IMG/VR virus record: IMGVR_UViG_3300033070_001087
Span: 16,177-80,176 of that record
Origin: a virus
Lineage: Duplodnaviria > Heunggongvirae > Uroviricota > Caudoviricetes
Length of the DNA stretch: 64,000 nt
Strand: one strand, 5' to 3'
Part shown: positions 152 through 57,230 of the stretch, one piece after another
Layout of the letters: each line of letters begins with the position of its first letter
Position numbering within the stretch: position 1 is the stretch's first letter
Translations under genes and position numbers: made by a program
Notes under the pieces: model-generated
What the model was told of the DNA's origin: nothing
The model's database searches: none
What the model saw: only the letters and a program-made list of their open reading frames with translations

Positions 152-421
152 TCATTTTAATTTATTTATTTGTAAACAACAATATTCACAATGATAATTT
201 ATTTTTTCTATTATAAATTTTATTTCATTTAAAGTTAAACAATTTAAATTATCTACATTCTGTCTTTTTAATGTTCTTAAATACATAATTAATTCATTTA
301 ATATATCAGAATCTTTTTGAGAACAAGAACTACCTGATTGTTCAGCTAATGCTAAATTATAAGCTTTATTAGCTATACAACATTGAAGTTGAAATAATAT
401 ATCAATATATTCTTGTTGCAT
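152..421 (-). CDS. hypothetical Cys-rich small protein
   Basis: 89-aa ORF at the end of the minus-strand structural block. C-terminal CEYCC cluster. No family recognised. Confidence 0.3.
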   Translation of the reverse strand: MQQEYIDILFQLQCCIANKAYNLALAEQSGSSCSQKDSDILNELIMYLRTLKRQNVDNLNCLTLNEIKFIIEKINYHCEYCCLQINKLK

Positions 422-19979: not shown

Positions 19980-20630
19980 GTGTTTAACTCCAAAATTAAA
20001 ATCAAATATATGGAAGATACACAAAAAAAACAAGAAGAAACCAAAAACGACCGATTTATAGGAGTTTTGGCAGCACAAACAGCACTTAATAAAAGTGGTG
20101 TCATCTTAAAAGATAGTATTATCTTAGATGCTAAAGATGAGAACGCTATTGATAACGCATTTAATGAGTTATTTGGCGAAAATGGCAAATTGCCACAATC
20201 AGCACGATTCGCTGGTAGTACACAATCAATCTCAATGCCTGCGGACATATCAGATGAATTTGATGTGACAGTTGAAGGTACATTTGCATTGGACTACAAA
20301 TTAAGCAAAAATACAACAATTGCTGATAGAGAAAATGAAACTCTAAGAACGCAACCAATTGAAAGTATTAATGCTTCTGTTAAAGTTCCTGTTAAAACAC
20401 ATTTTAACAATAAAATGTATTCTATGAATTTAAACGTAACTCGTGAAAACATAGAAGAAGTTAAAGCATTGTTGAAAAATGGAACAGCAAAAGCTACTAC
20501 ATCACATTGGGAAGGTTTACCACCTCGCAAAGATGGTAGTTTGGTTGCTAAATTGGTTTTAACTCCAATTAACGCACCTGCACCAAAGATTGCTAACACA
20601 ACCGAAGCAAGTTTAACTACTGAATCTTAG
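19980..20630 (+). CDS. hypothetical protein (first gene of plus-strand block)
   Basis: 216-aa ORF. The true start is possibly the internal Met at about 20010. Confidence 0.4.
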   Translation: MFNSKIKIKYMEDTQKKQEETKNDRFIGVLAAQTALNKSGVILKDSIILDAKDENAIDNAFNELFGENGKLPQSARFAGSTQSISMPADISDEFDVTVEGTFALDYKLSKNTTIADRENETLRTQPIESINASVKVPVKTHFNNKMYSMNLNVTRENIEEVKALLKNGTAKATTSHWEGLPPRKDGSLVAKLVLTPINAPAPKIANTTEASLTTES

Positions 20631-26518: not shown

Positions 26519-26653
26519 GTTGTCGGTAGCTCAGTGGTAGAGCAATGGTTTAAAAAAGCCTATTATGTCTATTCTTACATTATGGTATAGTGAAATAATA
26601 GTTACTTCAATTCGGCACCGTGGGTCCTGCGTTCGAATCGCAGTCGGCAACCA
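26519..26653 (+). ncRNA. tRNA-like RNA with ~67-nt insertion replacing anticodon loop (Y RNA/YrlA-like candidate)
   Basis: Acceptor (G)TTGTCGG/TCGGCAA(C). U8-A9. D-arm GCTC-AGTGGTA-GAGC. A stem ATGGT/ACCGT encloses a structured insert with CTATTAT/ATAATAG. Perfect T-arm CTGCG-TTCGAAT-CGCAG. CCA encoded at 26651-26653. Confidence 0.45.
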
Positions 26654-32931: not shown

Positions 32932-33168
32932 ATGTTGAAAGAAGAAATCAAACGTATAAAACAAGAAGCTAATAAAAACTTTAACCATCGTAAAGGTAGT
33001 AAAAGACAAATTATTATTGCTTCTACTCTGTCAGACAGAAAGAAGGTTTTATACACAAACAATCCGTTTAGAAAATTAGAAATTATTAATCCACTTTTGG
33101 AAAAAGACATTCAAAGAAATGATAGATTTAAAGGAAAACGAATATTTGAACGAAATCCCAAGATTTGA
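32932..33168 (+). CDS. hypothetical basic protein
   Basis: 78-aa ORF. Lys and Arg-rich. Confidence 0.3.
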   Translation: MLKEEIKRIKQEANKNFNHRKGSKRQIIIASTLSDRKKVLYTNNPFRKLEIINPLLEKDIQRNDRFKGKRIFERNPKI

Positions 33169-34279
33169 TCCTTTCAAAGGTAAAATGCCTACACCATTTA
33201 TGGCAACACACTCTTATAGTTATGGAGTAGACACAAATGGTAAGAAAATAATAATGGATTCAATTCACACAGGATGTCATTCTTTTGTAAAAAGTAGAAT
33301 TTATGGAAAAGGTCACTCGTTATGTGTAGTAGTACCAATTACCTGCTGCTTTTATCAAAAAGAAGAAATTGAAGAATATATCAATCTTTTAAAACAAATA
33401 GGATTTCAAATCGAATTTAAAGGAATCTTAACAGACGCAGAAGTAGAAAAGAATCACGGCGGAGTATACAATATGGCTAATAAAGAAAATTATGTTTTCT
33501 TATTAGGCGAAGATTACAAGAATAATGTTGCTAGCGTGAGATATGCTGCATTGTGTTTGGTAAGGGCACTTTGGAATACAAACCAATTTTGGCTACCATA
33601 TAGATTTGTTGAATTCTACAGGTATTTTAAAAAGCGAAAAATTAAACCATCTTTAAGTAAAATATTAGTTCTTGCTAACCTCTGTCCACATAATCTAATT
33701 AGTGATTCATATATATTCCATAGAATAAAAGAAACAGAAAAAGGAGATTGGGAAGCGAAGAAAGATATAATTAATAAAGAATCTGGTTTGTTAGGTGGAT
33801 ATTACGGATTTATAGGACATTCAAATACTGATGTAATTTTAAATTCTGACTACGAATGTATTTATAAAAGCTTTTATATTTCTCTACTCTTAATAGGAGA
33901 TAATAAATTTAATATAATTGATTTTATTGAAAATTATAATATTAATGGTAAATTAACTGGTAACCTTTCGCAAATTAATCATTTAAACATTAATACATAT
34001 GGTAAAACACGAATGATTCGTGATGATAAAAACATATTAAATAATAAGTTAAGAGAATTATTAAAAGATAAACTGTATTACAAAGCTTTCCTTTATTTAA
34101 AAGAAATTGCAATAAGTTATAAACAATTTCCTGATTCACATTTTACAAATTTAGATCTGCAAAATATAGGTACAATGGATAATGTGTCGTCACATTACAT
34201 CCTACCAGAAGAAAAATCAGAGAAATTTATAGCAGAGTTTGTTGAGAAAACAAGTAAGGAAAAGAAAAAATCAAAATAA
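33119..34279 (+). CDS. hypothetical protein
   Basis: 386-aa ORF. Confidence 0.35.
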   Translation: MIDLKENEYLNEIPRFDPFKGKMPTPFMATHSYSYGVDTNGKKIIMDSIHTGCHSFVKSRIYGKGHSLCVVVPITCCFYQKEEIEEYINLLKQIGFQIEFKGILTDAEVEKNHGGVYNMANKENYVFLLGEDYKNNVASVRYAALCLVRALWNTNQFWLPYRFVEFYRYFKKRKIKPSLSKILVLANLCPHNLISDSYIFHRIKETEKGDWEAKKDIINKESGLLGGYYGFIGHSNTDVILNSDYECIYKSFYISLLLIGDNKFNIIDFIENYNINGKLTGNLSQINHLNINTYGKTRMIRDDKNILNNKLRELLKDKLYYKAFLYLKEIAISYKQFPDSHFTNLDLQNIGTMDNVSSHYILPEEKSEKFIAEFVEKTSKEKKKSK

Positions 34280-35151
34280 TGGAAAAAGACAAAGACAAAC
34301 TTAACAATAGCCACATAACACTTGGCACCGATCCAGAGGTATTTTTATACTCTTTGATTGATAAAATATTTTATCCTTCCTTTGGTGTTATCAAAGGTGA
34401 TAAAGAAATACCATTTCAGATACCTGATTTACCAAAAGGATTTACTACTCAAGTAGATAATGTAATGTGTGAATTTAATATTCCACCTGCATCTAATCCA
34501 CAAGAGTACTCTGATAATATTCAGAAAATCTATGATTGGTTAAAAAAAAATCTTCCAGAATCACTAGTTGTACGAGTACAACCAAGCGCAGAATTTACTA
34601 ATGCAATGTTGGCTGATGATAAGGCACATATTGTTGGTTGTTCTGAAGACTTCTCAGCTTATAGCGGAGAGAATGTTAGTGTAACAAATTTATCTGAATC
34701 AAACTGGCGTTTTGCTGGTGGTCATATCCATGTTGGATATCCAAGTCCTGCTTATTTTAGCAGTAAAACCATTATTAAATGGATGGATATTTTCTTAGGA
34801 TTACCATCTGTTATTTTGGACACAGATGAACGAAGAAAAGCTATTTATGGTACACCAGGAAGATGGCGTGATAAAGACTTTGGTCTTGAATATCGTGTTT
34901 TATCAAACTGGTGGACAGAAAGAGAAGAGTATCGTAAATGGGTATTCCGTCAGACTGAAAAAGCATATTATGCTTTTAAAGAGAATGTAGAAATTGGTGA
35001 AGACTTTGAAAGACAGGTACAAGACTGTATTGAGCAGAACAATGCAGAACAAGCACGTGTCTTGATGGCACATTTTGGTGTGGCTGATGAGTCATTTACT
35101 GAGATTTTTAACATTAAAATGAAAGAATATGCAGACCAACACGCTGAATAA
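34279..35151 (+). CDS. hypothetical protein
   Basis: 290-aa ORF. Confidence 0.35.
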   Translation: MEKDKDKLNNSHITLGTDPEVFLYSLIDKIFYPSFGVIKGDKEIPFQIPDLPKGFTTQVDNVMCEFNIPPASNPQEYSDNIQKIYDWLKKNLPESLVVRVQPSAEFTNAMLADDKAHIVGCSEDFSAYSGENVSVTNLSESNWRFAGGHIHVGYPSPAYFSSKTIIKWMDIFLGLPSVILDTDERRKAIYGTPGRWRDKDFGLEYRVLSNWWTEREEYRKWVFRQTEKAYYAFKENVEIGEDFERQVQDCIEQNNAEQARVLMAHFGVADESFTEIFNIKMKEYADQHAE

Positions 35152-35523
35152 AAAAGAAGAAGTTGCTGGTGAAACTCCAGCAGGTGGAACACAACCTAAT
35201 GTAGAAGTTCCAGTTAAAACACCAAGAATTGGTATAGTAGGACATATGTTGCCAAATGGCACATCAGTAGGAGTTAGCCTTCCTTATCTTACCTATTTTA
35301 CTAAATTTGGTAATGTTATTATTGTAAATCCAGTTGCTATTCTTGTAGAAGAGAACTTAGATTTATTAGTAATACCAGGTGGACCAGATGTATCTACTAT
35401 ACGATATCTAGGAAAAGGTGATAAACATTCCTTTTTTAATCAAAAACCTGATCAAGCAAGAGAATGGTTTGATGTTAATATGTTACCTAAGTATATTGAA
35501 AAGCGTATTCCAATTTTCGGGAT
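35129..35523 (+). CDS. peptidase C26 / class-I glutamine amidotransferase-like protein, exon 1
   Basis: VIPGGPDV motif. The ORF reads ...IPIFGI just before the expected catalytic Cys. It ends at U35523. Confidence 0.5.
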
Positions 35524-36497
35524 AAAATTACATGTCCCACTCTATAGTAATATAGATGTTAAAAACAGGGTGAACTCATGGAAAGCTGAAATGCCAATCA
35601 TGAGCCAAGCTTAGATAGAAATATCTTTGAAGGTGCAGAGACTAACAATCGAGACTAAGTTTTAAGAGTTATATCTTGAAATACGTCAGTAACATTGACA
35701 AGAGCGCCCTGATTCTTATAAAAATTTATTAATAATTGCATATTTTTTGAAAATACTTCTACTTGATCAAAAGTGGCTTGATTTTTCATCATATTTGCAA
35801 GTCTTGAAAGAACAATTATATTACCTTTAATATATCCTTTATTATTATCTATTCTATCTATTGTAGCATAGTTATAATTTTGATAATCTCCTTCTTTTGT
35901 ATTATATAAAAGAGGAAATTTAAATATTGGACATTCATTTGGTAATTGTAAATCTTGATATTCTAAATTAAACTCTAAATTTCTTCTTTTAGCAGAATAT
36001 TTTATATTTCTAATCATATATCCTTTTACTCTATCTAACTCGTTAGTATAAGTGTTTTGAAACATTTTAGGTTTTAGTCCTAATTTATTTCTAAAATAGT
36101 TTACTTGCTTTTGAGATATACCTAAAGTAGAAGCAATTTGATTATCAGTATAATCTAATTCTCTTAACTCAGAAATTCTTGATTTTAATTTTTCAAAGTA
36201 AACATCTCTATTATTTGGTAAATCATTTTTAATACGAAACTCATAGATCGTACTCATTGCTTTATTAAATATTTCAGATAATTCTTTGTCAGATTTTCCT
36301 TGATTATAAAGTTCAAGAAACTTAATTTTGTCTATCATGTAAATTTGTTTTTATTGTTGCAAATATACAAAATTAATTGTTATTTTAAGAAAAAATAAAT
36401 AATTTTTATTTAAGAATATGATATAGTCCAAACTTATACAAAATACAAGTATAAGAATTCGGAAATAAAGAGTTCCGAAGATAATAGGCCCTATTTG
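35524..36497 (+). mobile_element. group I intron (putative) in C26 peptidase gene, with antisense HNH ORF
   Basis: The 5' exon ends in U and the intron ends in G36497. Joining the exons gives GI-CRGHQ, which restores the catalytic-Cys motif. P7-like AGACUA occurs twice at about 35628-35650 and UAGUCC at about 36424. Confidence 0.5.
35655..36338 (-). CDS. HNH (HNH_3) homing endonuclease
   Basis: IDRIDNNKGYIKGNIIVLSRLAN HNH_3 motif plus N-terminal HTH modules. Located inside the intron on the opposite strand. Confidence 0.6.
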   Translation of the reverse strand: MIDKIKFLELYNQGKSDKELSEIFNKAMSTIYEFRIKNDLPNNRDVYFEKLKSRISELRELDYTDNQIASTLGISQKQVNYFRNKLGLKPKMFQNTYTNELDRVKGYMIRNIKYSAKRRNLEFNLEYQDLQLPNECPIFKFPLLYNTKEGDYQNYNYATIDRIDNNKGYIKGNIIVLSRLANMMKNQATFDQVEVFSKNMQLLINFYKNQGALVNVTDVFQDITLKT

Positions 36498-36963
36498 ATG
36501 TAGAGGCCACCAAACTATTGCAGTACACTTTGGTGCAAAGTTAATTCAACACTTATCTGGTCATGATCAAAATAAAGAAGATGAAAGAAATTACTTAATT
36601 CAATCTTTAGCATATTTACATACTGAAGTACAAGATGATTTACTTGTAGTAAGAGATATACAAGAAAGAATTGATGTAAACTCAATGCATCATCAAGCAG
36701 TTGAAACCTGCCCAGCTAATGCAACAGTTGCTGCATGGACTTGTGAAATATATTCTAATACTAAGAACAACCAAGCATGGATGAGTTCTTATAAGTATAA
36801 AGGACATTTACCAGAATTTGTTCACAATAATCGTAAATATATTATTGAAGCATTAGTATATAATAACTACCCCATCGCTTCTGTTCAATGGCATCCTGAA
36901 GAGATTCATGATGAGTTTTCAGATGGACTTATAGCGATGTTAATTGCGTGTTCCAATAGCTAA
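36498..36963 (+). CDS. peptidase C26 / GATase1-like protein, exon 2
   Basis: Frame reads (I)CRGHQTIAVHFGAK...NSMHHQAV...VQWHPE, the canonical C26 Cys-His motifs. A stop lies immediately upstream in frame. Confidence 0.55.
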
Positions 36964-37497: not shown

Positions 37498-37839
37498 ATG
37501 ATTAGTAATAACGATAAAAGACAAGACAATAGCGAAAATGTATTAAAAAGAATTACAGAAAACAAATTTAAAGTATTAAGAGATAGAAATGGAATCGCCC
37601 TTAATGTATCCTATTCACACGATGGATTAAAATGGACTATTGATGCTAAAGGTAGAAATTTATATTACCAAGATGGCAACTATGTAGAAGATTTTAAACC
37701 TAATTATAGGATCTTAAAACAGAATTCATTTATGTCAAAATGTGAAAAAAGATGGGTTGATAAAGCAAATGCAATGCTTTATGAACAAAGACCTTTTTTC
37801 ATGGCTGAAAATAAAATGAAAAGAAAAAACGAATGTTAA
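37498..37839 (+). CDS. hypothetical protein
   Basis: 113-aa ORF. Confidence 0.35.
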   Translation: MISNNDKRQDNSENVLKRITENKFKVLRDRNGIALNVSYSHDGLKWTIDAKGRNLYYQDGNYVEDFKPNYRILKQNSFMSKCEKRWVDKANAMLYEQRPFFMAENKMKRKNEC

Positions 37840-38444
37840 ATATCTTAACAACATCTGAAGAAGACAAACAACCAAAGAAAGCTCACCCTGGAGATGCATG
37901 TGCAGACATAATAGCAACATCTGTTGTATATGATGCAAAGTACATAGAATATAGCACAGGATTAAAAATGTTACCCGATGAAGGATATTTAGGATTAGTA
38001 TTTCCTAGAAGTTCAATATCAGGGTACGATTTGATTCTATGTAATTCTGTAGGCGTAATAGACGAGTATACAGGTGAGTGGAAAATTCGATTCAAAAGAA
38101 CCAAACAACCATTAATTGATTTCTTGTATCGATCTTACACAGCTAAGAGAGACGAATACATCGATAAAAGTAATTATCATAAGACATTAAGTTTTCTTAA
38201 TCCAAAAAGAGCCAGAGTTTTTGACCAGGTTTATAAGTTAAAGAAAGAAGTAGAATTCATAGACAAGCAAATTCATGAAGCTGAAGCATCTGAAAAGATA
38301 TATCAAATTGGTGATAAAATTGCACAGTTTATGTTTGTACCTAAAACTGAATGGACTTATGTATTTACAGAAAAGATGCCTGAAACAACTAGAGGAGAAA
38401 AAGGTTTTGGAAGTTCAGATTTAAAACATGGGAAGAAGAACTAA
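37833..38444 (+). CDS. dut: dUTPase (trimeric) with large insertion between motifs III and IV
   Basis: Motifs GDACADI, PRSS, GVIDEYTGEW, GDKIAQFMF and TTRGEKGFGSSD. An extra ~65 aa lies between motifs III and IV. Confidence 0.6.
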   Translation: MLNILTTSEEDKQPKKAHPGDACADIIATSVVYDAKYIEYSTGLKMLPDEGYLGLVFPRSSISGYDLILCNSVGVIDEYTGEWKIRFKRTKQPLIDFLYRSYTAKRDEYIDKSNYHKTLSFLNPKRARVFDQVYKLKKEVEFIDKQIHEAEASEKIYQIGDKIAQFMFVPKTEWTYVFTEKMPETTRGEKGFGSSDLKHGKKN

Positions 38445-38916
38445 AATAGGAAATTTCATACATTCTTCATGGACTAATATAAATATAAGATGTGGTAAAT
38501 ATAAACATTTACAAAATGTTGATAAATGCAAATCTTATAAAAGTGTTAAAATTGAAATGACAAGAGATGAATACAAAGATTATTGTATAGAAAATAGAGA
38601 TAATATATTATCTTTAAAAAGACCTTCTATAGATAGAATTGATTCATCTAAAAATTATTCTTTAGATAATATACAAATTATAGAGCTTAGAGATAATATA
38701 TCTAAGAAAAAAACTGCTAATAATTATACTAATTTTTCTAAACTTAGAGGAGTTAGAATGTCTAGTTCAGGAAAATATGTAGCTCGTATTTGTGTAAATA
38801 AAAAGGAAGTTAATCTTGGAAGTTTTGAGAAACAAGAAGATGCATATGATGCTTTTTATAATAAGTATCTTGAAATTTATAAAAAGGAACCATGGAAACA
38901 ATACAGGAAGATTTAA
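38428..38916 (+). CDS. HNH-AP2 homing endonuclease
   Basis: SIDRIDSSKNYSLDNIQIIELRDN is HNH_3. GVRMSSSGKYVARICVNKKEVNLGSFEKQEDAYDAF is an AP2 domain. Confidence 0.6.
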   Translation: MGRRTKIGNFIHSSWTNINIRCGKYKHLQNVDKCKSYKSVKIEMTRDEYKDYCIENRDNILSLKRPSIDRIDSSKNYSLDNIQIIELRDNISKKKTANNYTNFSKLRGVRMSSSGKYVARICVNKKEVNLGSFEKQEDAYDAFYNKYLEIYKKEPWKQYRKI

Positions 38917-39365
38917 AAGCAAATAAACTGATAACTGTTTTTAATGATTGGGAAAATCAAAAAGATGTAATAGGTACAGTATTGCTCATTAAGAGATTAA
39001 AGAGAGGCTTACCATTTATCTTAAAAGATACAGTAACTAAAAGAACACCTGAAAAGAAGAAGTTTCATGAAACAATATTCTTTGAATGGAGTGATGAAGA
39101 GGAATCATTAGAGACAACTAAAGTATATGGCTATGAACAATGGCTATGTAAAGTTATCAAATCTGTAAATCCATCCTATCCTATTAACACAGAAGTAAGA
39201 TTAAATATCAGGTACTTAAAAGGAGATTTTAAGGATGCAGAAATCCAAAGCAACTATAAGAACTTTGATGAAGATGAATTAGAAGAAGAAGCTTATCTTA
39301 CTCAATGGAAAATAAAAAATCTAATGGATAAGTTTATTGAAGTTAACGGAGAAGAGATTTACTAA
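38892..39365 (+). CDS. hypothetical protein
   Basis: 157-aa ORF. Confidence 0.35.
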   Translation: METIQEDLKANKLITVFNDWENQKDVIGTVLLIKRLKRGLPFILKDTVTKRTPEKKKFHETIFFEWSDEEESLETTKVYGYEQWLCKVIKSVNPSYPINTEVRLNIRYLKGDFKDAEIQSNYKNFDEDELEEEAYLTQWKIKNLMDKFIEVNGEEIY

Positions 39366-40340
39366 CATCAAATACGTAATTTATGATATTGAAACTTTAA
39401 AAGAGTGCTTTACATTTTGTTTCTTAGACTACGAAACAAAAAAAAGAAAACAATTCATAATTCACAAAACAAAAAATGAGTTTAATGAACTCATAGACTT
39501 CATTGTTAGACTAAAACAACATAATTATTATTTTGTTGGATTTAATAATCTAGCATTTGATGGACAAATACTACAATATTTATTTAAGAATAAAACATTT
39601 AGAAAAGCACCTGTAGAATTGGTATTAAAAGAATCTTATAAATTTGTACAGGATTTAATTGCCTTACAAAATAGAGACGATAAATATCAACATGTAGTTG
39701 CAGAGAAGAATTTAATATTCCCACAAATAGATTTGTTTAAACAAAAGCACTATGATGGTACAGCAAAGAGAGGAACTTCTTTAAAATGGATTGAATTCAC
39801 GATTGGTTTTGATAACATTCAAGAAATGCCAATTCATCATAGTGCTTGTGTAGATCAAGAGGATATAGATTTAATCTTATCCTATAATTGGAATGATGTG
39901 GAAGCAACCACCAAATTTTTTGAACTCATAAAGTTTGAAACTGATTTACGAATCAACTTATCAAATGAATATGATATTAATTTATTAAATGCATCTGAAC
40001 CAAGATTAGCGAAAGAAATTTTTGCAAAATTCTTATCAGAAGAATCAGGAATTAGTCCGTGGGAGTTAAAAAAGCTTAAAACAAGAAGAAATATAATTAA
40101 TGTAAATGAAATTATATTTCCTTATATTAAGTTTCAAACAGAACAACTAAATATTCTTTTAGATCAAATCAAGCAATTGAAGATTGATGGGAATAATACA
40201 AGAGATTCATTTGAAAAAGTTTTTAACTACCATGGAATAGAAACTGTAATGGCATTAGGTGGAATACATGCATGTTGTGAGCCAGGAGTTTATAAAGATA
40301 ATGAGAATCTAATTATGGAAGATATTGACGTTAAAGATGT
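39337..40340 (+). CDS. family B DNA polymerase, exon 1 (3'-5' exonuclease domain through motif A Asp)
   Basis: Exo I YDIET. The ORF ends ...DIDVKDVAS with a stop. The proposed junction restores DVTSFYPN, which is motif A DxxSLYPS. Boundary within a few nt. Confidence 0.5.
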
Positions 40341-41247
40341 AGCGTCATAACTGTGTGAATTGCTGGAAGCCTAAGTGAAAATATGGTAATCAGCAGCCAA
40401 GTTAAATCGGGTTCAGAGACTATCGAAATCCTATGCCAATAGAGAAAGTAGAGTACAGCTTTATGCTGGAAGCGCACAGAGATTCTTTAAATAATTATCC
40501 TTTAATTTTTAGGATAATAAGATATTATTTTGTATATTTGTAATATGAAATTAAATATACAACATAAAGGAAAATCAGGAATTTATTGTATTAGAAATAT
40601 AATAAATAATAAAGTTTACATTGGAAAATCTATAAATATTTATTATAGACTAAAAAATCATATTGGAGCTTTAAATGGAAAAATTAGAAAACATGAAAAT
40701 GAATACTTAATTAATTCATGGTATAAATATGGTAAAGAAAACTTTGAATATTTTATATTAGAATATTTAGATAAAGAAGAAAGTATTTTATCAGAAAGAG
40801 AATTGTATTGGATTAATTACTATGATTCAATTAATCCTTCTAAAGGATATAATCTAAGATTAGATGTAAGTTCTAAGTGTATTGTCTCTACTTCAACTAG
40901 AGAAAAACTTAAAATAGCAACTAGTAAGAGATTTGAAAAATTAGAAGAAAGAGAAAAAGTTTCTAAGCATTTTAAAAATTTTTGGAAAAAAAATCCAGAT
41001 ATTTTAAGAGAAATGTCTAATAAAGTTTCGAAAGCAAAATGTAAATATAAAATTCTTCAATATACAAAAGAAATGGTTCTTATTAAAGAATATAATTCTG
41101 TTAAACAAATTATTGAAGAAAATCCCGATTACAAATGGCAAAATATATATTCTGTATGTAATGGTTATAAACCAACTATGTATGGATATATATGGAGAAA
41201 AGAATCTAAGATATAGTCCGATCCTATAGGAAACTGTAGAAAAATTG
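40341..41247 (+). mobile_element. group I intron (putative) in polB with GIY-YIG ORF
   Basis: Exon 1 can end in U40340 and the intron ends in G41247. GC-richer structured 5' segment with cAGAGACUAucg near 40412 and UAGUCC at 41215. Contains a same-strand GIY-YIG ORF. Confidence 0.45.
40530..41216 (+). CDS. GIY-YIG homing endonuclease (intron-encoded)
   Basis: SGIYCIRN...KVYIGKS...R...E...YNLR GIY-YIG core. Confidence 0.65.
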   Translation: MYICNMKLNIQHKGKSGIYCIRNIINNKVYIGKSINIYYRLKNHIGALNGKIRKHENEYLINSWYKYGKENFEYFILEYLDKEESILSERELYWINYYDSINPSKGYNLRLDVSSKCIVSTSTREKLKIATSKRFEKLEEREKVSKHFKNFWKKNPDILREMSNKVSKAKCKYKILQYTKEMVLIKEYNSVKQIIEENPDYKWQNIYSVCNGYKPTMYGYIWRKESKI

Positions 41248-42175
41248 TACATCATTTTATCCAAATTTAGCAATTCAAAACGATTTAAAACCTGCTCATT
41301 TAGGAGATTCTTTTACGAAAATATATAACAATATTTTTCAAGAAAGAAAAGGTATTCCAAAAACAGATCCAAGAAATTATGTATATAAAATTATTCTTAA
41401 TAGTACCTATGGATTAAGTAATGAAGAGAATTCTTACTTATATGATCCATTGTTTACTATGTCAATTACTATTAATGGTCAATTGAGTATCTTAATGTTA
41501 GTAGAAATGCTAACATTAGCTATTCCAGAAATTAAAATTTATCAAGAGAATACTGATGGTGTAACTATTGGATATGCTCCTGATAAGAAGCAGGTAGTAC
41601 ATGATATATGTAGAGAATGGGAAAAAATCACTAAATTAGAATTAGAGAATAACTTTTATAAACAAATGGTTATTATGGATGTTAACAATTATATTGCTGT
41701 TGATATTAAAGGAAAAATTAAAAGAAAAGGATTGTTTGAATATCAATTAGATTATCACAAAAACCATTCTTTTTTAATTGTAGCTAAAGCATTAGAAGCA
41801 TATTTTGTTAATGGTATAGACTATAAACAGTTTATCAAAAACCATAATAATTATTCAGATTTCTTTGGAGCTGTAAAAGGTAAAAGTGATTTTGAAATAA
41901 ATCTTTATTTTATTAAAAATAGAGAATTTATAAAAGAAAAACAACAAAAAGTATGCAGATACTATATATCAAATAAAGGTGGTAAACTTATTAAAGATTA
42001 TCATGATGGTAGACAAGTATCTGTAGAAGCTTCAAGTGTATGTAATATTATTAATGATATTAAAGGAATAGAATCTTTTGATATTAATTATAACTATTAC
42101 ATTAACGAAGTGCGAAAAATAATTAGCTTGATTGAGAAACCAAAAGTTATCCAAACAAGCTTAATATTTAATTAG
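41248..42175 (+). CDS. family B DNA polymerase, exon 2 (palm/thumb)
   Basis: The in-frame read upstream of the listed ORF gives SFYPNLAIQ...KIILNSTYGLS, which is motif B KxxxNSxYG. Motif C is YQENTDGV. A frame stop lies just upstream. Confidence 0.5.
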
Positions 42176-50943: not shown

Positions 50944-51351
50944 ATGGAAAAACAAAACGAGCAAAAAACAGTATTACTGTTTGTTTATGGAACTTTAATG
51001 AGTGGATTTGGCAACAATATATTACTCAAAGGTCAAAATCTTATTGGACCTGGAGAAACAGTCAATGACTACACAATGTATGCATCTGGAATCCCATTTG
51101 TTAATGATGAAAAACAAACATCAAAAATTAAAGGAGAATTATGGGAAGTTCAACCTTCCAGAATGCCATCGCTTGATGGCTTAGAAGGTCATCCCAATTG
51201 GTACCAAAGAAAACTTGTACCTGTTACTGTTAATGGTGAAGAATTCCAAGCTTGGTTATACTTCAATACAGAAAACAGAGGAAATTTAGTAGAAGATGGT
51301 GACTATCGTAAATACAGAGAAGAAATTGCAAAACCAAAAGCAGTCGTATAA
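50944..51351 (+). CDS. gamma-glutamyl cyclotransferase-like (AIG2/GGCT fold)
   Basis: N-terminal LLFVYGTLMSGFGNN, the YGTL motif of the GGCT/AIG2 family. Confidence 0.5.
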   Translation: MEKQNEQKTVLLFVYGTLMSGFGNNILLKGQNLIGPGETVNDYTMYASGIPFVNDEKQTSKIKGELWEVQPSRMPSLDGLEGHPNWYQRKLVPVTVNGEEFQAWLYFNTENRGNLVEDGDYRKYREEIAKPKAVV

Positions 51352-52245
51352 ATGGCATTAGCAAAAAAGAAAACTCCAGTAGCAAAAGTAGGTACAGGTT
51401 ATTACTCACAAATTAGAAGTAGACATCCATCTCATGATGTATTTAGAAATAGAAAAGAATTAAAATTTCCTTTTCGTTCTGTAATCAGATTTGGAAGTAC
51501 TACTGAGTTACCTGACACTATAGCTAAAGGTGGAAAACGAATTGAATTAAACTCAACTGAAGCAATTAAAAACTCAGCTTCAAAATTAAGAATGAAAAAT
51601 TGCTTTACATTAAGTAAAGTTAAAACCGCTGATTGGTATTATATAAGAAAAGATAAGTTTTACAAAATAAATAATTACGAAAATCAAATACAGGAAACTG
51701 TATTATTGATTTCTGATTTACCATATCCAATAGTAGCTAAACATCATTTTGGCTCAAGAGGTAATGGAAATTATCTTTTGAATTCTCAAGAAGAATTACA
51801 AAATTGGATGAAAGGTAAAGATTTAAGCAATTATCTCTTTGAAAAATTCTACAATTACAACAGAGAATATAGATTACATGTAACTAAAAATGGTTGCTTC
51901 TATACCTGTCGTAAAATGTTAAAATCTGATGCTCCTAAAGATAAGAGATGGTTCAGAAATGACAGCAATTCGGTTTGGATTGTAGAAGAAAATGAACAGT
52001 TTGACAAACCAATAAACTGGAAATTAATCGAAGAACAATGTGTAGAAGCATTGAAATCAACTGGTTTAGACTTTGGTGCATGTGATGTAAGAGTACAATC
52101 ATCAAAAAATAATGATGGAAAAAAACGTAAAGATGTTGACTTCATCATTGTTGAGATTAACTCTGCTCCATCATTTGGAGAAAGAACTGAAATTGAATAC
52201 TTAAAAGAATTACCAAAAATTTTAAAGGAAAAATCTACAAATTAA
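51352..52245 (+). CDS. ATP-grasp domain protein (putative peptide/amide ligase)
   Basis: IVAKHHFGSRGNGNYLL region plus a downstream Asp and Glu-rich segment, typical of ATP-grasp enzymes of the RimK/GshB type. Assignment tentative. Confidence 0.4.
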   Translation: MALAKKKTPVAKVGTGYYSQIRSRHPSHDVFRNRKELKFPFRSVIRFGSTTELPDTIAKGGKRIELNSTEAIKNSASKLRMKNCFTLSKVKTADWYYIRKDKFYKINNYENQIQETVLLISDLPYPIVAKHHFGSRGNGNYLLNSQEELQNWMKGKDLSNYLFEKFYNYNREYRLHVTKNGCFYTCRKMLKSDAPKDKRWFRNDSNSVWIVEENEQFDKPINWKLIEEQCVEALKSTGLDFGACDVRVQSSKNNDGKKRKDVDFIIVEINSAPSFGERTEIEYLKELPKILKEKSTN

Positions 52246-52246
52246 A

Positions 52247-52939
52247 ATGATAAAAGACAGAAAAATTTTCGTAGTAGGACCTTCAAGTCATTATGCAAAT
52301 TGGATGGGTGGAACATTAGTAAAAACTATTGAAGAAGCTGACTTAGTTGTATTTACTGGAGGAGCTGATGTCTTCCCAGGAATCTATAAAGAAGAAGATA
52401 TTCATCCAAGAACATCTTATTTTCTTGAAAGAGATGACTTTGAAATGACTGCTTACGAAAAAGCTTTAAAACTAGGTAAAAAAATGATTGGTATCTGCCG
52501 TGGCCACCAATTATTAAGTGCGTTAAATGGTGCAAAATTAATTCAGGATCAACCAAATCCTGGAATGCATTTTATGAAAACTCACTATGGAGATGAAATC
52601 TTTATAAACTCTATGCACCATCAAGCGGTGTTTCCTTTTAATCTACCTGAAGATAATTATTTTATTTTAGGTTGGACAGAAGGTCTAAGCTCACACCACG
52701 AAAATGGTAAAAAAGAAGAGATGAATCCACCGGTTGAAGTTGAAATGATATATTTTCCAAAAACTAATTGTTTAGGAATTCAATGTCATCCAGAAATGAT
52801 GCATACAATAAATACAACTAATAATCAAAAAGCTATGAAATTCTTTAAGAATCAACTTCATAGATTTATGATAGATTGTCTATTTGTTGATAAGCAAGCA
52901 AACGAAAAACTAAAAAAAAAGAAGTTGGTAATTAATTAA
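52247..52939 (+). CDS. peptidase C26 / class-I glutamine amidotransferase-like (gamma-glutamyl hydrolase type)
   Basis: GICRGHQ nucleophile elbow, NSMHHQAV, and GIQCHPE His-Glu. Paralog of the intron-containing gene at 35129/36498. Confidence 0.6.
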   Translation: MIKDRKIFVVGPSSHYANWMGGTLVKTIEEADLVVFTGGADVFPGIYKEEDIHPRTSYFLERDDFEMTAYEKALKLGKKMIGICRGHQLLSALNGAKLIQDQPNPGMHFMKTHYGDEIFINSMHHQAVFPFNLPEDNYFILGWTEGLSSHHENGKKEEMNPPVEVEMIYFPKTNCLGIQCHPEMMHTINTTNNQKAMKFFKNQLHRFMIDCLFVDKQANEKLKKKKLVIN

Positions 52940-52952
52940 TTAAAATAAAATA

Positions 52953-55076
52953 ATGAACGAGCTTAGCTTAATAAACAGCATACTTCTATTTCAAATAGTA
53001 GGATATGCTATACTACGTATATTTTTCAAACCAGATATAGGTAGAAGATTGTATTGTGGTGTATTCGCGTTCAATGGTCCAACTAATTTATCAAAAGCTT
53101 TATGTCATCTTGTACTAAACAATATTAAAATATTGGGTATGTACAATGATGAACGAGGTGGTGATAATGCAGGTATAGTAATCAATAATGAAGTACTAAG
53201 AACTATTGGAACTGAATATAAATTCAAGACTCTACTGGAGAGAAATCATATAGATGTGTTAGATCCTGCTATTTCAACTATCGTTATTGGACATTCAAGA
53301 AAAGGCTCTGTAGGTGGGAAAGGTCATGAGAATGCTCATCCTTTTGAAATCTATGAAGACAAAAAGAATCCAAGTCCTGATTGGTACATGACTGGCGTTC
53401 ATAACGGAACTATAGAAAATTGGCAAGATTTACTTAAAAATCATGTATTAGACGAAAAAGAGTTTAAGAATGATAGTAAAACTATGTTAAAAATTATAGC
53501 TCGCCAGAGAAAACTTAAAAAAGTTAAAAAGTATAATGTACTTGAAAAATACAAAGGTAATGGAGTATTTATCTGGTATTTCCGTGATGAACCTGATACC
53601 ATGTATGTGTTTAAAGGAGCACATAAAAAGTACAAAACTGCAACAAAAGCTGACGAAGAAAGACCATTATTTTTCTATGAATGTCCAATCACAGAAGGTA
53701 TTTATTTTAGTTCTATCAAAGATTCTTTAATTGCTATTAGTGTAGATAGAGAATTAGTGAAAGATTTAGCAACAAATACTGTTTTCAAGTTCCGTCAAGG
53801 TAAACTTGTTGTAAAAGATTCGATAACAATAGAAAGAGAAAATATCTATGAATTTGAGTCAGCTAATTCATCAGTTATGTATGGTTACGGTGAAGAATAT
53901 GATGGTCATTGGGAAGGATGTGGTTTTGAACCAGCGATTCGACCAGGTATTCAAAAGCAAATTGGCTTCAAAGACTATACAGCACAAAGTCAAGAAGCAA
54001 TGGCTAAACAAGCTCTAAAAGAAAGAGCTGATCATTTGGTTAATAAAACTTTACCCAGTAATAGCTCAAATGTTTGTCCTATACCAATCTCTTCGTCTAC
54101 TTCTCCCACAAAAAGAGAAGGAAAAACCATCATTTTGGGAACAGATGATGTTCCCTTAAAAAACATTGCTAATTATAAAGATAAAATTTATAGAGAGCAT
54201 GGTTTATATAAGTTTGGTGGTGAATTACTCAATGGTGAGTATATTATTAATATGAAAACGTATGAAGTTCATTCTTCTTCTAAGAAAAATTTACTTGAAC
54301 AAGATCATATTTTTGAATCTCGCTTCTTCTATGAAGGATATATGTTAAAAAACAAAATAGCTTTAATTGATTTACAAGAATTGGATAAAGACAATTCAAA
54401 TTGGAAAGCTGATAAAGCTCAATATATCATGAGTAAATACTGCTCTTATCCTGTACCTACTACAGATGGTAAAATGTACTATTTAAACCTTAACAAAGCT
54501 CAAGGTTACTTCGAAGGAATTCCTTATAGTGAAGGTAAAGTTTATGATTACAAGGATGGCAAACTTATTGAAGTAAGAAAGATTGTGGAAACAACAAATC
54601 AGGAGAGCTCCATTCCACCACAGGAGATTGAATACGGACCTATTATAGGTCCAAAAACAAAGATAATAAATTTACATTGTCCAAACTATGATAGAGATAT
54701 TACAGATCCAGATGGTATAACATCTACACCTCCTAAGTTGACTGAAGAAGAAATCGCAGATCAACTTAAAAAAAATCAGGAAGAAGATAGCAGACAAGAA
54801 GAACTTTCTGTTATTGATTCTGCTGAACAAGAAATTCTTGAGCAATGGCTTAATTTAAAAGAAAAGATAGAAGAACAAATGTATAATATGGATCCATTTA
54901 TTAAAGATGGTTCGTTAAAAAAGTTGGATTTTTTATCTGGTAGTCTTTTCGATTGGGGTATTGATTGTATAGAAGGTGGTGTAGTAGGTACACCAAAAAA
55001 TTTATCTCCTTATTATAAGTTAGACGATAAAGGGAAATTAGCATACAGCAACATTTCTAAAATGAGATTTTTTTAG
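52953..55076 (+). CDS. class-II (Ntn) glutamine amidotransferase domain protein with long C-terminal extension
   Basis: Internal LYCGVFAFNGPTN matches the GATase-II N-terminal nucleophile CG(I/V)xG. It follows a ~34-aa hydrophobic leader. About 450 aa of extra C-terminal sequence. Confidence 0.45.
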   Translation: MNELSLINSILLFQIVGYAILRIFFKPDIGRRLYCGVFAFNGPTNLSKALCHLVLNNIKILGMYNDERGGDNAGIVINNEVLRTIGTEYKFKTLLERNHIDVLDPAISTIVIGHSRKGSVGGKGHENAHPFEIYEDKKNPSPDWYMTGVHNGTIENWQDLLKNHVLDEKEFKNDSKTMLKIIARQRKLKKVKKYNVLEKYKGNGVFIWYFRDEPDTMYVFKGAHKKYKTATKADEERPLFFYECPITEGIYFSSIKDSLIAISVDRELVKDLATNTVFKFRQGKLVVKDSITIERENIYEFESANSSVMYGYGEEYDGHWEGCGFEPAIRPGIQKQIGFKDYTAQSQEAMAKQALKERADHLVNKTLPSNSSNVCPIPISSSTSPTKREGKTIILGTDDVPLKNIANYKDKIYREHGLYKFGGELLNGEYIINMKTYEVHSSSKKNLLEQDHIFESRFFYEGYMLKNKIALIDLQELDKDNSNWKADKAQYIMSKYCSYPVPTTDGKMYYLNLNKAQGYFEGIPYSEGKVYDYKDGKLIEVRKIVETTNQESSIPPQEIEYGPIIGPKTKIINLHCPNYDRDITDPDGITSTPPKLTEEEIADQLKKNQEEDSRQEELSVIDSAEQEILEQWLNLKEKIEEQMYNMDPFIKDGSLKKLDFLSGSLFDWGIDCIEGGVVGTPKNLSPYYKLDDKGKLAYSNISKMRFF

Positions 55077-57230
55077 ATGAACAAAAAGAAAAACAAGGAC
55101 TATGCATTAACAGTTTCTGGAAATGAAGTTCTAAAAACAAATTGCATATTAATCAATAAAGAGTATTATGAGAAGAATGTTGACTGTTTCCTTATTAACT
55201 ATAAAGGAAATGAAAGATGGGTTCCATTTGATAACTCTTATTGTTTTAATTTTGTAAATGGACAATACGAAAAGAGAAAACTCGTAGAAGAAAAAGGACT
55301 TACTAAGTTCTTAATTGGGTTCGGTGGTAAACAACTAGAAAAACTTGTGTTTGGCTATGATGTTGCCAATTTTGCGATAAATACCAAAGTGTTTTCTCAC
55401 TACGGAAATAAAAGTCTTGATTATCAGACATATCAAACAGAAATTAAAAGATCTGAAGAGCGAATTGTAAAATATGAAGAGAGACTTCAACCTCAAATAT
55501 TATTTAACGATAATTATGGAAGTTATATTAATATTATATGTAAGTTATATTACTACAGAAACTTTATCAATAAAGAACTTCCATTTCCAATAGAGGATAT
55601 TACTCTAAAAGATTTTGTTAAAATTATTAGAGAAGTTGAAAATTATACTCTAAGAGATAATGATATCAGAAATGATTTTCAAGAATTCTATAATGACTAT
55701 TGCTGTTATGTTCATACTGGTTATGATCCTGTTAGTCCAGAAGATGATCCAGATAATACTCTACAAAAAATCACTTATGAAATTGTACAACAAACTCCAG
55801 TTTTAGCAAAAATATTTGATTTTGTTATATCTTATTTTGAAATTACATCTTCTTTAAAGAATGAAATTTCAGCTGAAAAAGCAAAATTACAAAAGTATAA
55901 TGCAAAACTTAAAGAAATTAAAGATGCTAATTTCTTTAGTGAAATTTGTAGAACAAAAGAAGATGCAATAAATCTTGGTTTTATTGAATCATTCTCAAAT
56001 GACTCTTATTATTTAAAAAGAAATCTCAGTACTGGTGAGATAGCAGCTTTATCCAAAATTCCATCGCATAATCAAGATGGTTCTTATAGTAAAAACATAA
56101 GAATTAATTATAATGCAAATCAAGGAACAGATGTTTTCACAAGGATATTAGAAAGCTACTATCTTACGAGAGAAGAGAATACTAAATTAGAAAGAAAGAG
56201 TTATAATATTGCAAGGTTATTAAATGGTTTAACTTATGGTATTGAATTTGAAACTTGTTTAGGTAGAATTAGAGAACCTGATTTATATAGACATGGAATT
56301 ATTCCTTTAAGAGATGGTTCTGTAACTGGTTTTGAATATACAACTATACCTTATGGTTATTCTAATGTGAATTTAAATGAAACAAGCACTCAAGCATTAG
56401 CTAAAGACTTGACTAATTTAAAAGAACTTTGTAATGAATTAACCAAGCGTTGTCAAATAAACTCACGATGTTCTATGCATATACATATTGGAGGAGTAAG
56501 AAAAGATAAACTTTATTTACTTGCTGTATATATGTTATGTTATATGATACAAGATGAGATGTTTGAGATGTTTCCAAAGTTTAAGGAAGATTCTCCTAAG
56601 TATTTAGGTACACAAAAGAATTACTGTAAAAAATTAGACCATTTGGATTTATTCGATAACTGTATATTTGACAAAAGTTCTGTTTTAAAAGAAAATTATT
56701 GTGATAATATCAATGAGTATTTTAACAGAATTTTTAAGTTCTTATCTGATGGACAAGATATAGGTTCTAAATTTAATCGTAAATTATTAAGACACCCAAT
56801 AGATCAAAAATGGAATAGACATGGTAGATATCATTGGGTTAATTTAGTAAATTCCGTATTTAGTAATTCAAGAACTATTGAGTTTCGATTACATACAGCA
56901 ACCTTAAACTTTACTAAAACTTTAAATTGGATGTTAATCTGTTCAGCAATTGTAAAATTTGCTGATACTCACACTAAAGAAATTGTGTCAGGTAAAATAT
57001 CTAAAATTAGTTTAGATGAGTTGATAGGTGGTTATTGTAATGGATTCAGAGATAAGAAAAAAACAAACGAAAACGGACTATTCGTTCATAAGTATCTAAA
57101 TGAGTATATTAATACTCGTAAGGTATACTTTGCAAATAAGACTGTTCAAAAAGACTTTGTTTGTGAAGTAGAGTTAGAACAAGATAAGAATTTTGTATTT
57201 AACTACATGGGCGTAACTAGCCTGATTTAA
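55077..57230 (+). CDS. amidoligase (GCS2/carboxylate-amine ligase-like) large protein
   Basis: TYGIEFETCLGRI resembles the GxExE start of the GCS2/amidoligase catalytic domain. 717 aa. Cluster context with GATase-II, C26, ATP-grasp and GGCT. Confidence 0.4.
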   Translation: MNKKKNKDYALTVSGNEVLKTNCILINKEYYEKNVDCFLINYKGNERWVPFDNSYCFNFVNGQYEKRKLVEEKGLTKFLIGFGGKQLEKLVFGYDVANFAINTKVFSHYGNKSLDYQTYQTEIKRSEERIVKYEERLQPQILFNDNYGSYINIICKLYYYRNFINKELPFPIEDITLKDFVKIIREVENYTLRDNDIRNDFQEFYNDYCCYVHTGYDPVSPEDDPDNTLQKITYEIVQQTPVLAKIFDFVISYFEITSSLKNEISAEKAKLQKYNAKLKEIKDANFFSEICRTKEDAINLGFIESFSNDSYYLKRNLSTGEIAALSKIPSHNQDGSYSKNIRINYNANQGTDVFTRILESYYLTREENTKLERKSYNIARLLNGLTYGIEFETCLGRIREPDLYRHGIIPLRDGSVTGFEYTTIPYGYSNVNLNETSTQALAKDLTNLKELCNELTKRCQINSRCSMHIHIGGVRKDKLYLLAVYMLCYMIQDEMFEMFPKFKEDSPKYLGTQKNYCKKLDHLDLFDNCIFDKSSVLKENYCDNINEYFNRIFKFLSDGQDIGSKFNRKLLRHPIDQKWNRHGRYHWVNLVNSVFSNSRTIEFRLHTATLNFTKTLNWMLICSAIVKFADTHTKEIVSGKISKISLDELIGGYCNGFRDKKKTNENGLFVHKYLNEYINTRKVYFANKTVQKDFVCEVELEQDKNFVFNYMGVTSLI

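Follow-up and report, generated by a model that had tools for sequence, protein, structure and literature searches.

An intact seven-gene amidoligase cassette in a crAss-like phage genome and its predicted gamma-glutamyl chemistry

Which molecule is built, or trimmed, by a phage gene cluster that joins ATP-dependent ligases to enzymes cleaving gamma-glutamyl and glutamine amides? The question is raised by a stretch of 64,000 nucleotides of viral DNA (hereinafter the window; positions 16,177 to 80,176 of the IMG/VR record IMGVR_UViG_3300033070_001087, Caudoviricetes), for which a preliminary description, made from the letters alone, had proposed that five consecutive plus-strand genes at positions 50944-57230 form a self-contained ligation-and-hydrolysis system. 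We find that these genes come from a crAss-like phage and belong to a phage amidoligase cassette predicted in 2009, present here complete and intact, a system already known and annotated in Cellulophaga phage phi14:2 since 2013. The ligation-and-hydrolysis system of gamma-glutamyl and glutamine chemistry first suggested matches the published comparative-genomics prediction; the five genes are only a part of a full set of seven that is split over two loci in the window. On sequence comparisons, the reading that we favor, with a probability of roughly 0.6, is that the cassette encodes a multi-step cytoplasmic pathway that would make and break glutamate, gamma-glutamyl, or glutamine amide bonds on a non-ribosomal acceptor and would be expressed together with replication genes.

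Seven enzymes and their active sites

The five open reading frames (ORFs) have exactly the boundaries given to them at first (Table 1), follow one another with intergenic gaps of 0, 1, 13, and 0 nt, and encode a gamma-glutamyl cyclotransferase (GGCT) of the AIG2-like type, an ATP-grasp ligase, a Peptidase_C26/GATase1 enzyme (C26a), a class-II glutamine amidotransferase-like protein (GAT-II) of the N-terminal nucleophile (Ntn) type, and an amidoligase. All five family calls held up in profile searches, and every motif quoted with them recurs in the translations (VYGTL at aa 14-18 of the GGCT; GICRGHQ at aa 81-87, HHQAV, and QCHPE in C26a; Y34/C35-GVFAFNG in GAT-II; and YGIEFETC at aa 387-394 of the amidoligase). 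Among the smaller enzymes, whose conservation was counted over 56-77 orthologs, the GGCT matches PF06094 (E 6e-26, 91.8 bits against a cut-off of 22.8) and phrog_2520 (2e-32), has PH0828 and YtfP as PDB relatives, and keeps Y15-G16-[S/T]17-L18 (T17 in the window) in 47-53 and a candidate catalytic Glu81 in 48 of 56 orthologs. C26a matches PF07722 (7.5e-18, 65.5 bits against 20.5) and retains its Cys-His-Glu triad (C84/H181/E183, at least 90% conserved); its best PDB sequence match is Lin1909 (3fij, 4e-12), with 7d4r weaker. The ATP-grasp ligase was recovered by a phage-specific, RimK-like profile (phrog_2599, 4.5e-33) but lies below the curated cut-offs (Pfam ATP-grasp, 20 against 27 bits; NCBIfam rimK_fam, 24.9 against 143), and it shares 55% identity with g038 of phi14:2 and 44% with the protein of phage cr108_1. 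Its sub-threshold NCBIfam matches are to the RimK family, MptN, and PurK, and profile-to-PDB comparisons aligned PurK, PurT, and Ddl over the ATP-binding region. Across 69 orthologs K78, E172, R174, K188, D240, D245, E268, and N270 are at least 90% conserved, and the ATP-binding Lys/Glu and the Mg2+-binding E268-x-N270 are intact. By these matches, its nearest characterized relatives would be the alpha-L-glutamate ligases RimK and MptN, and those of C26a and a second C26 paralog described below would be the gamma-glutamyl-amide hydrolases PuuD, gamma-glutamyl-CDP-amidate hydrolase, and Lin1909, in each case at scores below the family cut-offs.

Of the two large proteins, the amidoligase matches PF12224 (3.3e-10, 40.7 bits against 22) over aa 442-626 only, and G388-x-E390-x-E392, D413-G-S, E420, H468-x-H470, R584, and E602-x-R604 are invariant in 50 homologs. 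Its structural model (pLDDT 89.8, pTM 0.79) has a fold like those of glutamine synthetase (GS) and GCS2: the top seven PDB matches in Foldseek are YbdK, GshA, and plant GCL, followed by Dop and GS, although all of these score weakly (E about 0.03, TM about 0.2-0.4), and the search gave no close relative with a solved structure. GAT-II matches GATase_6 (8.6e-7) and has the Ntn glutaminase fold, with an Ntn domain that resembles both true amidotransferases and the gamma-glutamyl hydrolase EgtC. In an alignment of 48 sequences R68, H114-x-R116, N127-A-H-P, H150-N151-G152, and D174 are invariant or nearly so, and the glutamine-site set (Arg, the Asn-Gly oxyanion hole, and Asp) is intact. Thus aligned, neither ligase falls into an unrelated family devoid of a ligase active site, and none of the catalytic Cys, His, and Glu residues of the GATase and C26 domains is missing. 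The sizes of GAT-II and the amidoligase, which had been left unexplained, are partly accounted for by conserved family-specific domains and lineage-specific inserts (Table 1); no known relatives of these extra domains were detectable.

Searching the window with the proteins of annotated cassettes, we recovered the remaining parts 15 kb upstream, at 34279-36963, in the form of a phiEco32-type COOH-NH2 (carboxylate-amine) ligase and the second C26 gene (C26b), both of which belong to the same cassette. The COOH-NH2 ligase passes the gathering score of PF14395 (34.8 bits against a cut-off of 25), has orthologs in cr108_1 (gp032, 5e-45), phi14:2 (g039, 1e-25), and Leptolyngbya phage Lbo-JY46 (XAI97309, 2e-34), and conserves the D-x-E, H-x-H, and E-x-R motifs of its family (D18, E20, E65, H149, R186, E204, and R206 being the conserved residues). 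Its fusion into the 717-aa amidoligase was also considered and was rejected once the separate gene had been found. With these two genes included, catalytic residues are conserved in all seven cassette proteins. Just upstream, the stop codon of a 386-aa ORF (33119-34279, plus strand) overlaps the start of the COOH-NH2 ligase; this ORF drew no match from PHROG, Pfam, NCBIfam, or PADLOC, no related ORF was found in the 83 loci fetched for the census below, and it could be a lineage-specific cassette accessory or unrelated.

C26b is interrupted exactly at the codon for its catalytic cysteine. The first exon closes with ...IPIFG-AT, and joining position 35523 to 36498 yields ...IPIFGI-CRGHQ... in a 286-aa protein that is colinear with the uninterrupted Lbo-JY46 ortholog, matches PF07722 across the junction (1.8e-26, 93.7 bits against 20.5), and carries a triad (C133/H264/E266) that is at least 90% conserved. 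The intron-bearing second C26 paralog noted in the preliminary description is thus real as a paralog, and the insert is probably a group I intron: Rfam Intron_gpI (RF00028) matches 35514-35719 at 29.1 bits (E 3.9e-5, in a 1.35-kb search), which, being under the gathering score of 50, does not certify its identity, and a search of the whole window at gathering score gave no group I intron match. The insert has a GC content of 24.6%, U35523 ends the 5' exon, GGGAU pairs to GUCCC (P1), and G36497 is the last intron base. An ORF inside it runs antisense to the interrupted gene, an orientation unusual for an intron-borne homing endonuclease; it has only weak helix-turn-helix matches in Pfam, and its C-terminal region looks HNH-like by eye (…IDRIDNNKGYIKGN…), which hidden Markov model (HMM) searches did not confirm.

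Table 1. Coordinates of the cassette genes, their domains, and associated elements in the window
Feature	Position	Strand	Remarks
Phage phiEco32-type COOH-NH2 ligase, 290 aa	34279-35151	+	PF14395, 1.3e-8
C26b exon 1 (second Peptidase_C26/GATase1 paralog)	35129-35523	+	matches aa 3-96 of the Lbo-JY46 ortholog
Intervening sequence in C26b, 974 nt; probable group I intron	35524-36497	+	sub-threshold Rfam Intron_gpI
ORF inside the C26b intron, 227 aa	35655-36338	-	antisense to the interrupted gene; helix-turn-helix motifs
C26b exon 2	36498-36963	+	starts A/TGT AGA GGC CAC CAA, giving (I)CRGHQ
GGCT/AIG2-like gamma-glutamyl cyclotransferase, 135 aa	50944-51351	+	PF06094, phrog_2520
RimK-like ATP-grasp carboxylate-amine ligase, 297 aa	51352-52245	+	phrog_2599
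C26a, Peptidase_C26/GATase1 gamma-glutamyl-hydrolase-type enzyme, 230 aa	52247-52939	+	PF07722
GAT-II, class-II (Ntn) glutamine amidotransferase-like protein, 707 aa	52953-55076	+	GATase_6
GAT-II hydrophobic leader	aa 1-34, 52953-53054	+	
GAT-II Ntn domain	aa 35-300	+	followed by a disordered linker
GAT-II conserved beta-rich domain	aa 391-545, 54123-54587	+	in 76/84 loci
GAT-II coiled-coil tail	aa 598-707	+	after an acidic linker; lineage-specific, 3/84 loci
Amidoligase_2 (GCS2/glutamine-synthetase-like) ligase, 717 aa	55077-57230	+	PF12224
Amidoligase conserved N-terminal beta domain	aa 1-112		in 73/84 loci
Amidoligase lineage-specific helical insert	aa ~121-380		in 9/84 loci
Amidoligase catalytic domain	aa ~381-717		

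Conservation of the cassette and the GAT-II leader

An amidoligase alignment scan of IMG/VR recovered 256 relatives, which belong to the crAss-like lineage. For a census of gene content we assembled 84 loci (83 fetched plus the window; 80 from the amidoligase scan) and searched them with a local HMM for each family. The obligatory core consists of GAT-II, the amidoligase, and the ATP-grasp ligase (in 83, 82, and 80 loci, respectively), followed by the COOH-NH2 ligase (72), the GGCT (63), C26a (55), and C26b (34). There are 50 distinct gene orders among the 84 loci. GAT-II immediately precedes the amidoligase in 82 of 82 cases, at a median distance of 3 nt (in the window the amidoligase start codon abuts the GAT-II stop), and 40 of the 72 COOH-NH2 ligase genes have a C26 gene just upstream. 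The cassette always sits in the replication module, in nearly all loci between the primase and the uracil-DNA glycosylase (UDG)/RusA/exonuclease genes. In the window, the five-gene cluster has the crAss-type replication genes primase and UDG on its 5' side, with the GGCT starting 10 nt past the UDG stop, and genes for a RusA-like resolvase, an exonuclease-VIII-like nuclease, and ribonucleotide reductase (RNR) on its 3' side. The agreement of seven mutually consistent families and their synteny in 80+ phage contigs puts the association far beyond chance.

The closest relative of the window is an uncultured contig (L004 of the census, 47% amidoligase identity), and near-identical DNA is absent from 50,697 phage records. 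Among cultured or named phages, tblastn with the amidoligase retrieved only phi14:2, cr108_1 (Crassvirales, Steigviridae), and Lbo-JY46. Cellular genomes were scanned with the ATP-grasp ligase, the amidoligase alignment being too divergent for this purpose, and in 185,579 species genomes its subtype gave six matches, all on contigs from metagenome-assembled genomes (MAGs) that resemble mis-binned phage. The MAGs that include these GTDB contigs (L085-L090, two of them 86-104 kb) are labelled as an archaeon, Saccharibacteria, Pedobacter, and Allosphingosinicella; most likely the contigs are phage DNA assigned to cellular genomes by a binning error. Cultured carriers of the cassette infect Pseudomonas, Klebsiella, Citrobacter, Vibrio, Pseudoalteromonas, Xanthomonas, Cellulophaga, and a cyanobacterium. 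PADLOC gave no link to anti-phage defence, and promoter and terminator scans performed at chance level.

Clustering of 310 unassigned ORFs yielded lineage-specific families only, with no extra universal cassette gene, be it tag, target, or accessory. The largest such family inside the cassette (clusters 9 and 13 merged) is found in 19 of the 84 loci, is absent from the window, and comprises divergent proteins of 260-340 aa, some as tandem paralogs (e.g., L003 3568-5487 and L057 5601-6407). Inserts of ~0.3-1.1 kb split the COOH-NH2 ligase gene in other census loci (L005, L043, L050, L061, and L082) and C26a in further ones (L059, L071, and L078), and intron-like invasion of cassette enzyme genes seems to be recurrent in the lineage.

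In GAT-II, Cys35-Gly36 is invariant and stands behind a leader of 34 aa, with no start codon before Cys35. Among the 81 orthologs with an identifiable Cys-Gly, 43 start with Met-Cys, the canonical Ntn arrangement, and the other 38 bear a leader of ~21-48 residues, which in 37 of them holds a 19-residue segment with a Kyte-Doolittle hydropathy of at least 1.6 followed by basic residues (family median 2.09; 1.86 in the protein of the window). The leader is conserved in sequence among close relatives, and this, together with the lack of a start codon before Cys35, indicates that it is translated. Because an Ntn nucleophile requires a free alpha-amino group, cleavage at Tyr34/Cys35 would be needed for activity; by analogy with other Ntn enzymes we infer that leader-bearing GAT-II is made as a proenzyme and cleaved between these residues. 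Class-II amidotransferases made with a propeptide include Bacillus subtilis PurF and the large subunit of glutamate synthase. In contrast to those propeptides, the phage leader is a transmembrane-grade hydrophobic helix, present in about half of the orthologs, and suggests a proenzyme that is either membrane-tethered or masked.

Candidate products of the cassette

The cassette combines three ATP-dependent carboxylate-amine ligases (the RimK-like ATP-grasp enzyme, the phiEco32-type COOH-NH2 ligase, and Amidoligase_2) with four enzymes that cleave glutamine or gamma-glutamyl amides (the two C26 GATase1 paralogs, the Ntn GAT-II, and the GGCT), and would accordingly form amides in three ATP-dependent steps and cleave them in up to four. 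To judge from their adjacency, GAT-II and the amidoligase are translationally coupled and probably constitute one two-subunit enzyme. This could be a glutamine-dependent amidoligase, in which ammonia released by the Ntn glutaminase would be captured by an acyl-phosphate on the GS-like subunit, or else a ligase with an EgtC-like gamma-glutamyl hydrolase as its partner. In leader-bearing versions, that of the window included, cleavage of the proenzyme at Tyr34/Cys35 would unmask the nucleophile. The ATP-grasp and COOH-NH2 ligases may attach glutamate-type or amino-acid units, from which the C26 enzymes and the GGCT would strip gamma-glutamyl groups, either as protecting groups or in turnover, as in the Puu, ergothioneine, and butirosin pathways. 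In the published proposal the acceptor would be the peptidoglycan stem peptide.

Several points weigh against such a pathway. The substrate assignments draw on distant homology, with NCBIfam scores far below the cut-offs and an E-value of about 0.03 for the amidoligase in Foldseek. Gene content is variable (GGCT in 63, C26a in 55, C26b in 34, and the COOH-NH2 ligase in 72 of the 84 loci), and the supposed pathway may therefore be a looser toolkit around the core of GAT-II, amidoligase, and ATP-grasp ligase. Moreover, it is adjacency only that suggests a GAT-II-amidoligase complex, and self-cleavage of the leader is predicted from Ntn chemistry and the precedents of PurF and glutamate synthase.

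Four alternatives were weighed. The first is the editing of cell-wall precursors, an idea that PMC5498523 and PMC11945000 trace to Iyer et al. (2009) and Hardies et al. (2013). In the more specific form considered here, the ligases would add or amidate residues on the stem peptide (of UDP-MurNAc-peptide or lipid II), the hydrolases and the GGCT would trim it, and such editing at the cytoplasmic face of the membrane would block superinfection or pre-condition the wall for lysis. We consider this acceptor unlikely, if conceivable. The transmembrane-grade helix with its basic residues in 38 of 81 GAT-II proteins would place a proenzyme at the inner membrane, near lipid-linked precursors, but 43 of 81 lack the leader, and the activating cleavage would itself lose the tether. 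The hosts of the cultured carriers that we found are almost only diderm, though this bias may come from sampling; an argument from archaeal-virus carriers against a role in peptidoglycan was set aside as weak, the host assignment being only predicted. The profile of the ATP-grasp ligase weakly matches D-Ala-D-Ala ligases, cyanophycin synthetase, and pseudomurein ATP-grasp enzymes, and glutamine-dependent amidation of the stem peptide has precedents in MurT/GatD and AsnB1/LtsA; yet no Mur-ligase, peptidoglycan-binding, UDP-sugar-binding, or lipid-carrier-binding domain was detected in the cassette proteins, and the cassette lies in the replication module rather than with lysis genes. The stronger version, in which leader-bearing GAT-II would be made as a self-cleaving proenzyme anchored in the membrane and the cassette would act at the inner membrane, is in our view decidedly doubtful. 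If it were true, crAss-like and many other phages would encode a multi-enzyme pathway that rewrites an envelope precursor, such as lipid-linked stem peptides; to our knowledge, a phage-directed cell-wall editing system of this kind has never been demonstrated. A new amino-acid-type pathway of DNA hypermodification would be an alternative on an equal footing with this membrane-bound version.

Such hypermodification of DNA or nucleotides, in which the ligases would attach or elaborate an amino-acid-type side chain on a base or nucleotide and the hydrolases would deprotect it, thereby shielding phage DNA from host nucleases, strikes us as highly improbable. It would suit the location of the cassette between primase and UDG/RusA/exonuclease in nearly all 84 loci, and by replication genes in unrelated podophages, and amidoligase and glutamine-amidotransferase Pfam domains are co-associated with thymidine-hypermodification genes in virome contigs (Lee et al., PMC8989533). 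However, UDG belongs to the usual crAss replication genes, occurs in 50 of the 84 loci, and is not strictly linked, and the PHROGs-annotated ORFs flanking both loci (about 25-46.6 kb and 58.7-63.1 kb) and the cassette neighbors yielded no dUMP/dCMP hydroxymethylase, 5-hmdU kinase, aGPT-pyrophosphorylase, DpdA, or base-flipping transferase. A phosphoribosyl pyrophosphate (PRPP) synthetase gene lies directly upstream of the Lbo-JY46 cassette, and the best PDB matches of the ATP-grasp ligase are, weakly, the purine-pathway enzymes PurK, PurT, and PurD, but the PurK-type matches span the generic ATP-binding part only, and a nucleic-acid-binding domain is not detectable in the cassette proteins. 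Protein tagging, with RimK-like or pupylation-like glutamate or peptide tails placed on host or phage proteins (e.g., ribosomal, RNA polymerase, or virion proteins) and removed by the C26, GGCT, and Ntn enzymes, would agree with the peptide-tag wording of the preliminary description, with the nearness of the ATP-grasp ligase to RimK-family alpha-L-glutamate ligases, with the presence of Dop/PafA in the fold class of the amidoligase, and with the argument of the Aravind group that proteins may be targets of phage ATP-grasp and COOH-NH2 ligases (PMC4431377). We nonetheless regard it as quite improbable: the clustering of unassigned ORFs left no conserved small tag or target gene in the cassette, GGCT and C26 enzymes typically act on small gamma-glutamyl amines and amino acids, and the resemblance to RimK and Dop falls far short of the family cut-offs. 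Finally, the enzymes might scavenge nutrients, breaking down gamma-glutamyl compounds of the host (glutathione, gamma-glutamyl amines, or murein peptides) and glutamine so as to re-route glutamate, ammonia, or cysteine to nucleotide and protein synthesis. Four of the seven hydrolyze or cyclize gamma-glutamyl or glutamine amides, genes for RNR, dUTPase, and replication lie in the same region as the cassette, and "host material recycling genes" have been spoken of (PMC5498523). Pure catabolism, though, hardly explains three conserved ATP-consuming ligases; the core is GAT-II, amidoligase, and ATP-grasp ligase, with the hydrolases the most dispensable parts; and the near absence of this version of the cassette from cellular genomes speaks against a borrowed housekeeping route, all of which makes scavenging very unlikely.

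The cassette takes up ~8 kb, roughly 8% of a ~97-kb phage genome, and is kept with conserved active sites in at least 256 IMG/VR crAss-like contigs and in many cultured phages of Gram-negative hosts. Candidate products are an edited cell-wall precursor, a modified nucleotide, a gamma-glutamyl metabolite, and a tagged protein, and whichever is made probably belongs to the general, costly means by which these phages take over cells. The window holds the crAss-like variety of a cassette that was predicted in 2009, and it leaves the overall picture unchanged, the interest residing in the question of what the cassette makes rather than in the particular locus. New here are the seven-gene set in the window, the census, the recurring GAT-II leader, and the make-up of the large extensions; the window adds a clean seven-gene example, a count of which parts are obligatory, and a hydrophobic propeptide on the glutaminase.

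Surroundings of the cassette and its relation to known systems

The window, with a GC content of ~30%, shows a strand switch at ~20000-20600, with minus-strand genes before and plus-strand genes after it and a change of sign in both GC and AT skew; this is a divergent junction of two gene blocks, of which the plus-strand block is the replication module. A tRNA-rich region at 26.5-27.2 kb contains a Pistol self-cleaving ribozyme (RF02679, 27087-27147, plus strand; 57.9 bits against a gathering score of 34.5) and a 129-nt tRNA-like Rfam match (26521-26649, plus strand, 32 bits) that may be an intron-containing tRNA. Five ordinary tRNAs (Trp, Met, His, Phe, and Thr) were called by both Rfam and ARAGORN, and a tRNA-Asn with the unusual anticodon ATT (24670-24753, plus strand) by ARAGORN alone. 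The DNA polymerase gene (39337-42175, plus strand) is in two pieces, 39337-40350 and 41450-42175, that both match phrog_1252; the insert between them carries an ORF for a GIY-YIG homing endonuclease (40530-41216) and is probably a further intron, undetected by Rfam. A free-standing HNH endonuclease gene (38428-38916, plus strand) overlaps the end of the dUTPase gene (37833-38444), whose product seems to contain an internal insertion relative to its PHROG profile.

The cassette itself has been described as a conserved module several times (PMC5498523, PMC11945000, PMC3890496, and PMC10580990). Iyer et al. (2009, Mol Biosyst) predicted it in phiEco32, LUZ24, and related phages, according to PMC5498523 and PMC11945000. 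The former of these, citing Iyer et al. and Hardies et al. (2013, J Virol), speaks of a "peptidoglycan modification cassette" of seven genes and lists phiEco32, 7-11, PA11, tf, MR299-2, LUZ24, PaP3, CW02, and RIO-1 as carriers. PMC11945000 uses the same name for the cassette of a LUZ24-like phage and passes on two suggested roles, superinfection exclusion or readying of the wall for lysis, and in phage UFV-P2 the COOH-NH2_lig, Amidoligase_2, GAT-II, ATP-grasp, and AIG2 genes are tabulated (PMC3890496). The only experimental indication that we found comes from a Pseudomonas phage under directed evolution, in which missense mutations arose convergently in the amidoligase and GAT-II genes (PMC11450229); it suggests that their function bears on fitness. 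In the full-text literature searched we found no biochemical characterization or assay of any cassette member, in agreement with what had been stated at the outset. In phi14:2, cr108_1, and Lbo-JY46, labels already given to the cassette proteins are gamma-glutamyl cyclotransferase, "ribosomal protein S6 glutaminyl transferase" (for the ATP-grasp ligase), COOH.NH2 ligase, aminotransferase (for GAT-II), and amidoligase.

Compared with the phiEco32/LUZ24/RIO-1-type cassettes, the version in the window has the same components, namely GGCT/AIG2, ATP-grasp, COOH-NH2_lig (PF14395), Amidoligase_2 (PF12224), GAT-II, and GATase1, and the phiEco32/LUZ24-type cassettes, and that of PSA-HP1, likewise lie among early or replication genes. 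In tblastn searches the ATP-grasp ligase and GAT-II of the window are tied to these phages, at an identity of only about 23-31%. The crAss-type GAT-II and amidoligase, at 707 and 717 aa, far exceed in size their LUZ24-like counterparts (about 440-490 and 320-385 aa), have extra conserved domains and, in about half of the cases, the hydrophobic GAT-II leader; the cassette of the window further differs from the phiEco32/LUZ24 type in its division between two loci. Far closer are phi14:2 (g037-g041) and cr108_1 (gp028-gp034), which carry direct orthologs, arranged in the order seen here, from primase to UDG/RusA/exonuclease, and the GAT-II of phi14:2 shares both the leader and the middle domain. 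Unlike the window, the two keep the COOH-NH2 ligase inside the cassette; phi14:2 is without a C26 gene, and cr108_1 is without the GGCT and has two extra hypothetical genes. In Lbo-JY46 all seven components are contiguous.

Among characterized pathways, a gamma-glutamyl group is added and then removed by PuuA/PuuD in putrescine degradation, EgtA/EgtC in ergothioneine biosynthesis, and BtrJ/BtrG in butirosin biosynthesis. The proteins of the window all score under the cut-offs of those families, and the three kinds of pairing occur together in one phage operon. Glutamine-dependent amidation of the stem peptide is performed by MurT/GatD, which combines a GATase1 with a ligase, and by AsnB1/LtsA, a class-II glutamine amidotransferase. 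Their ligase parts have the Mur-ligase or the asparagine-synthetase PP-loop fold, as against the GS/GCS2-like fold of the phage enzyme, and homology to them is detectable only in the glutaminase domain; what they have in common with the phage pair is a glutaminase coupled to an ATP-dependent ligase that acts on a carboxylate, which would make them analogs of GAT-II and its amidoligase.

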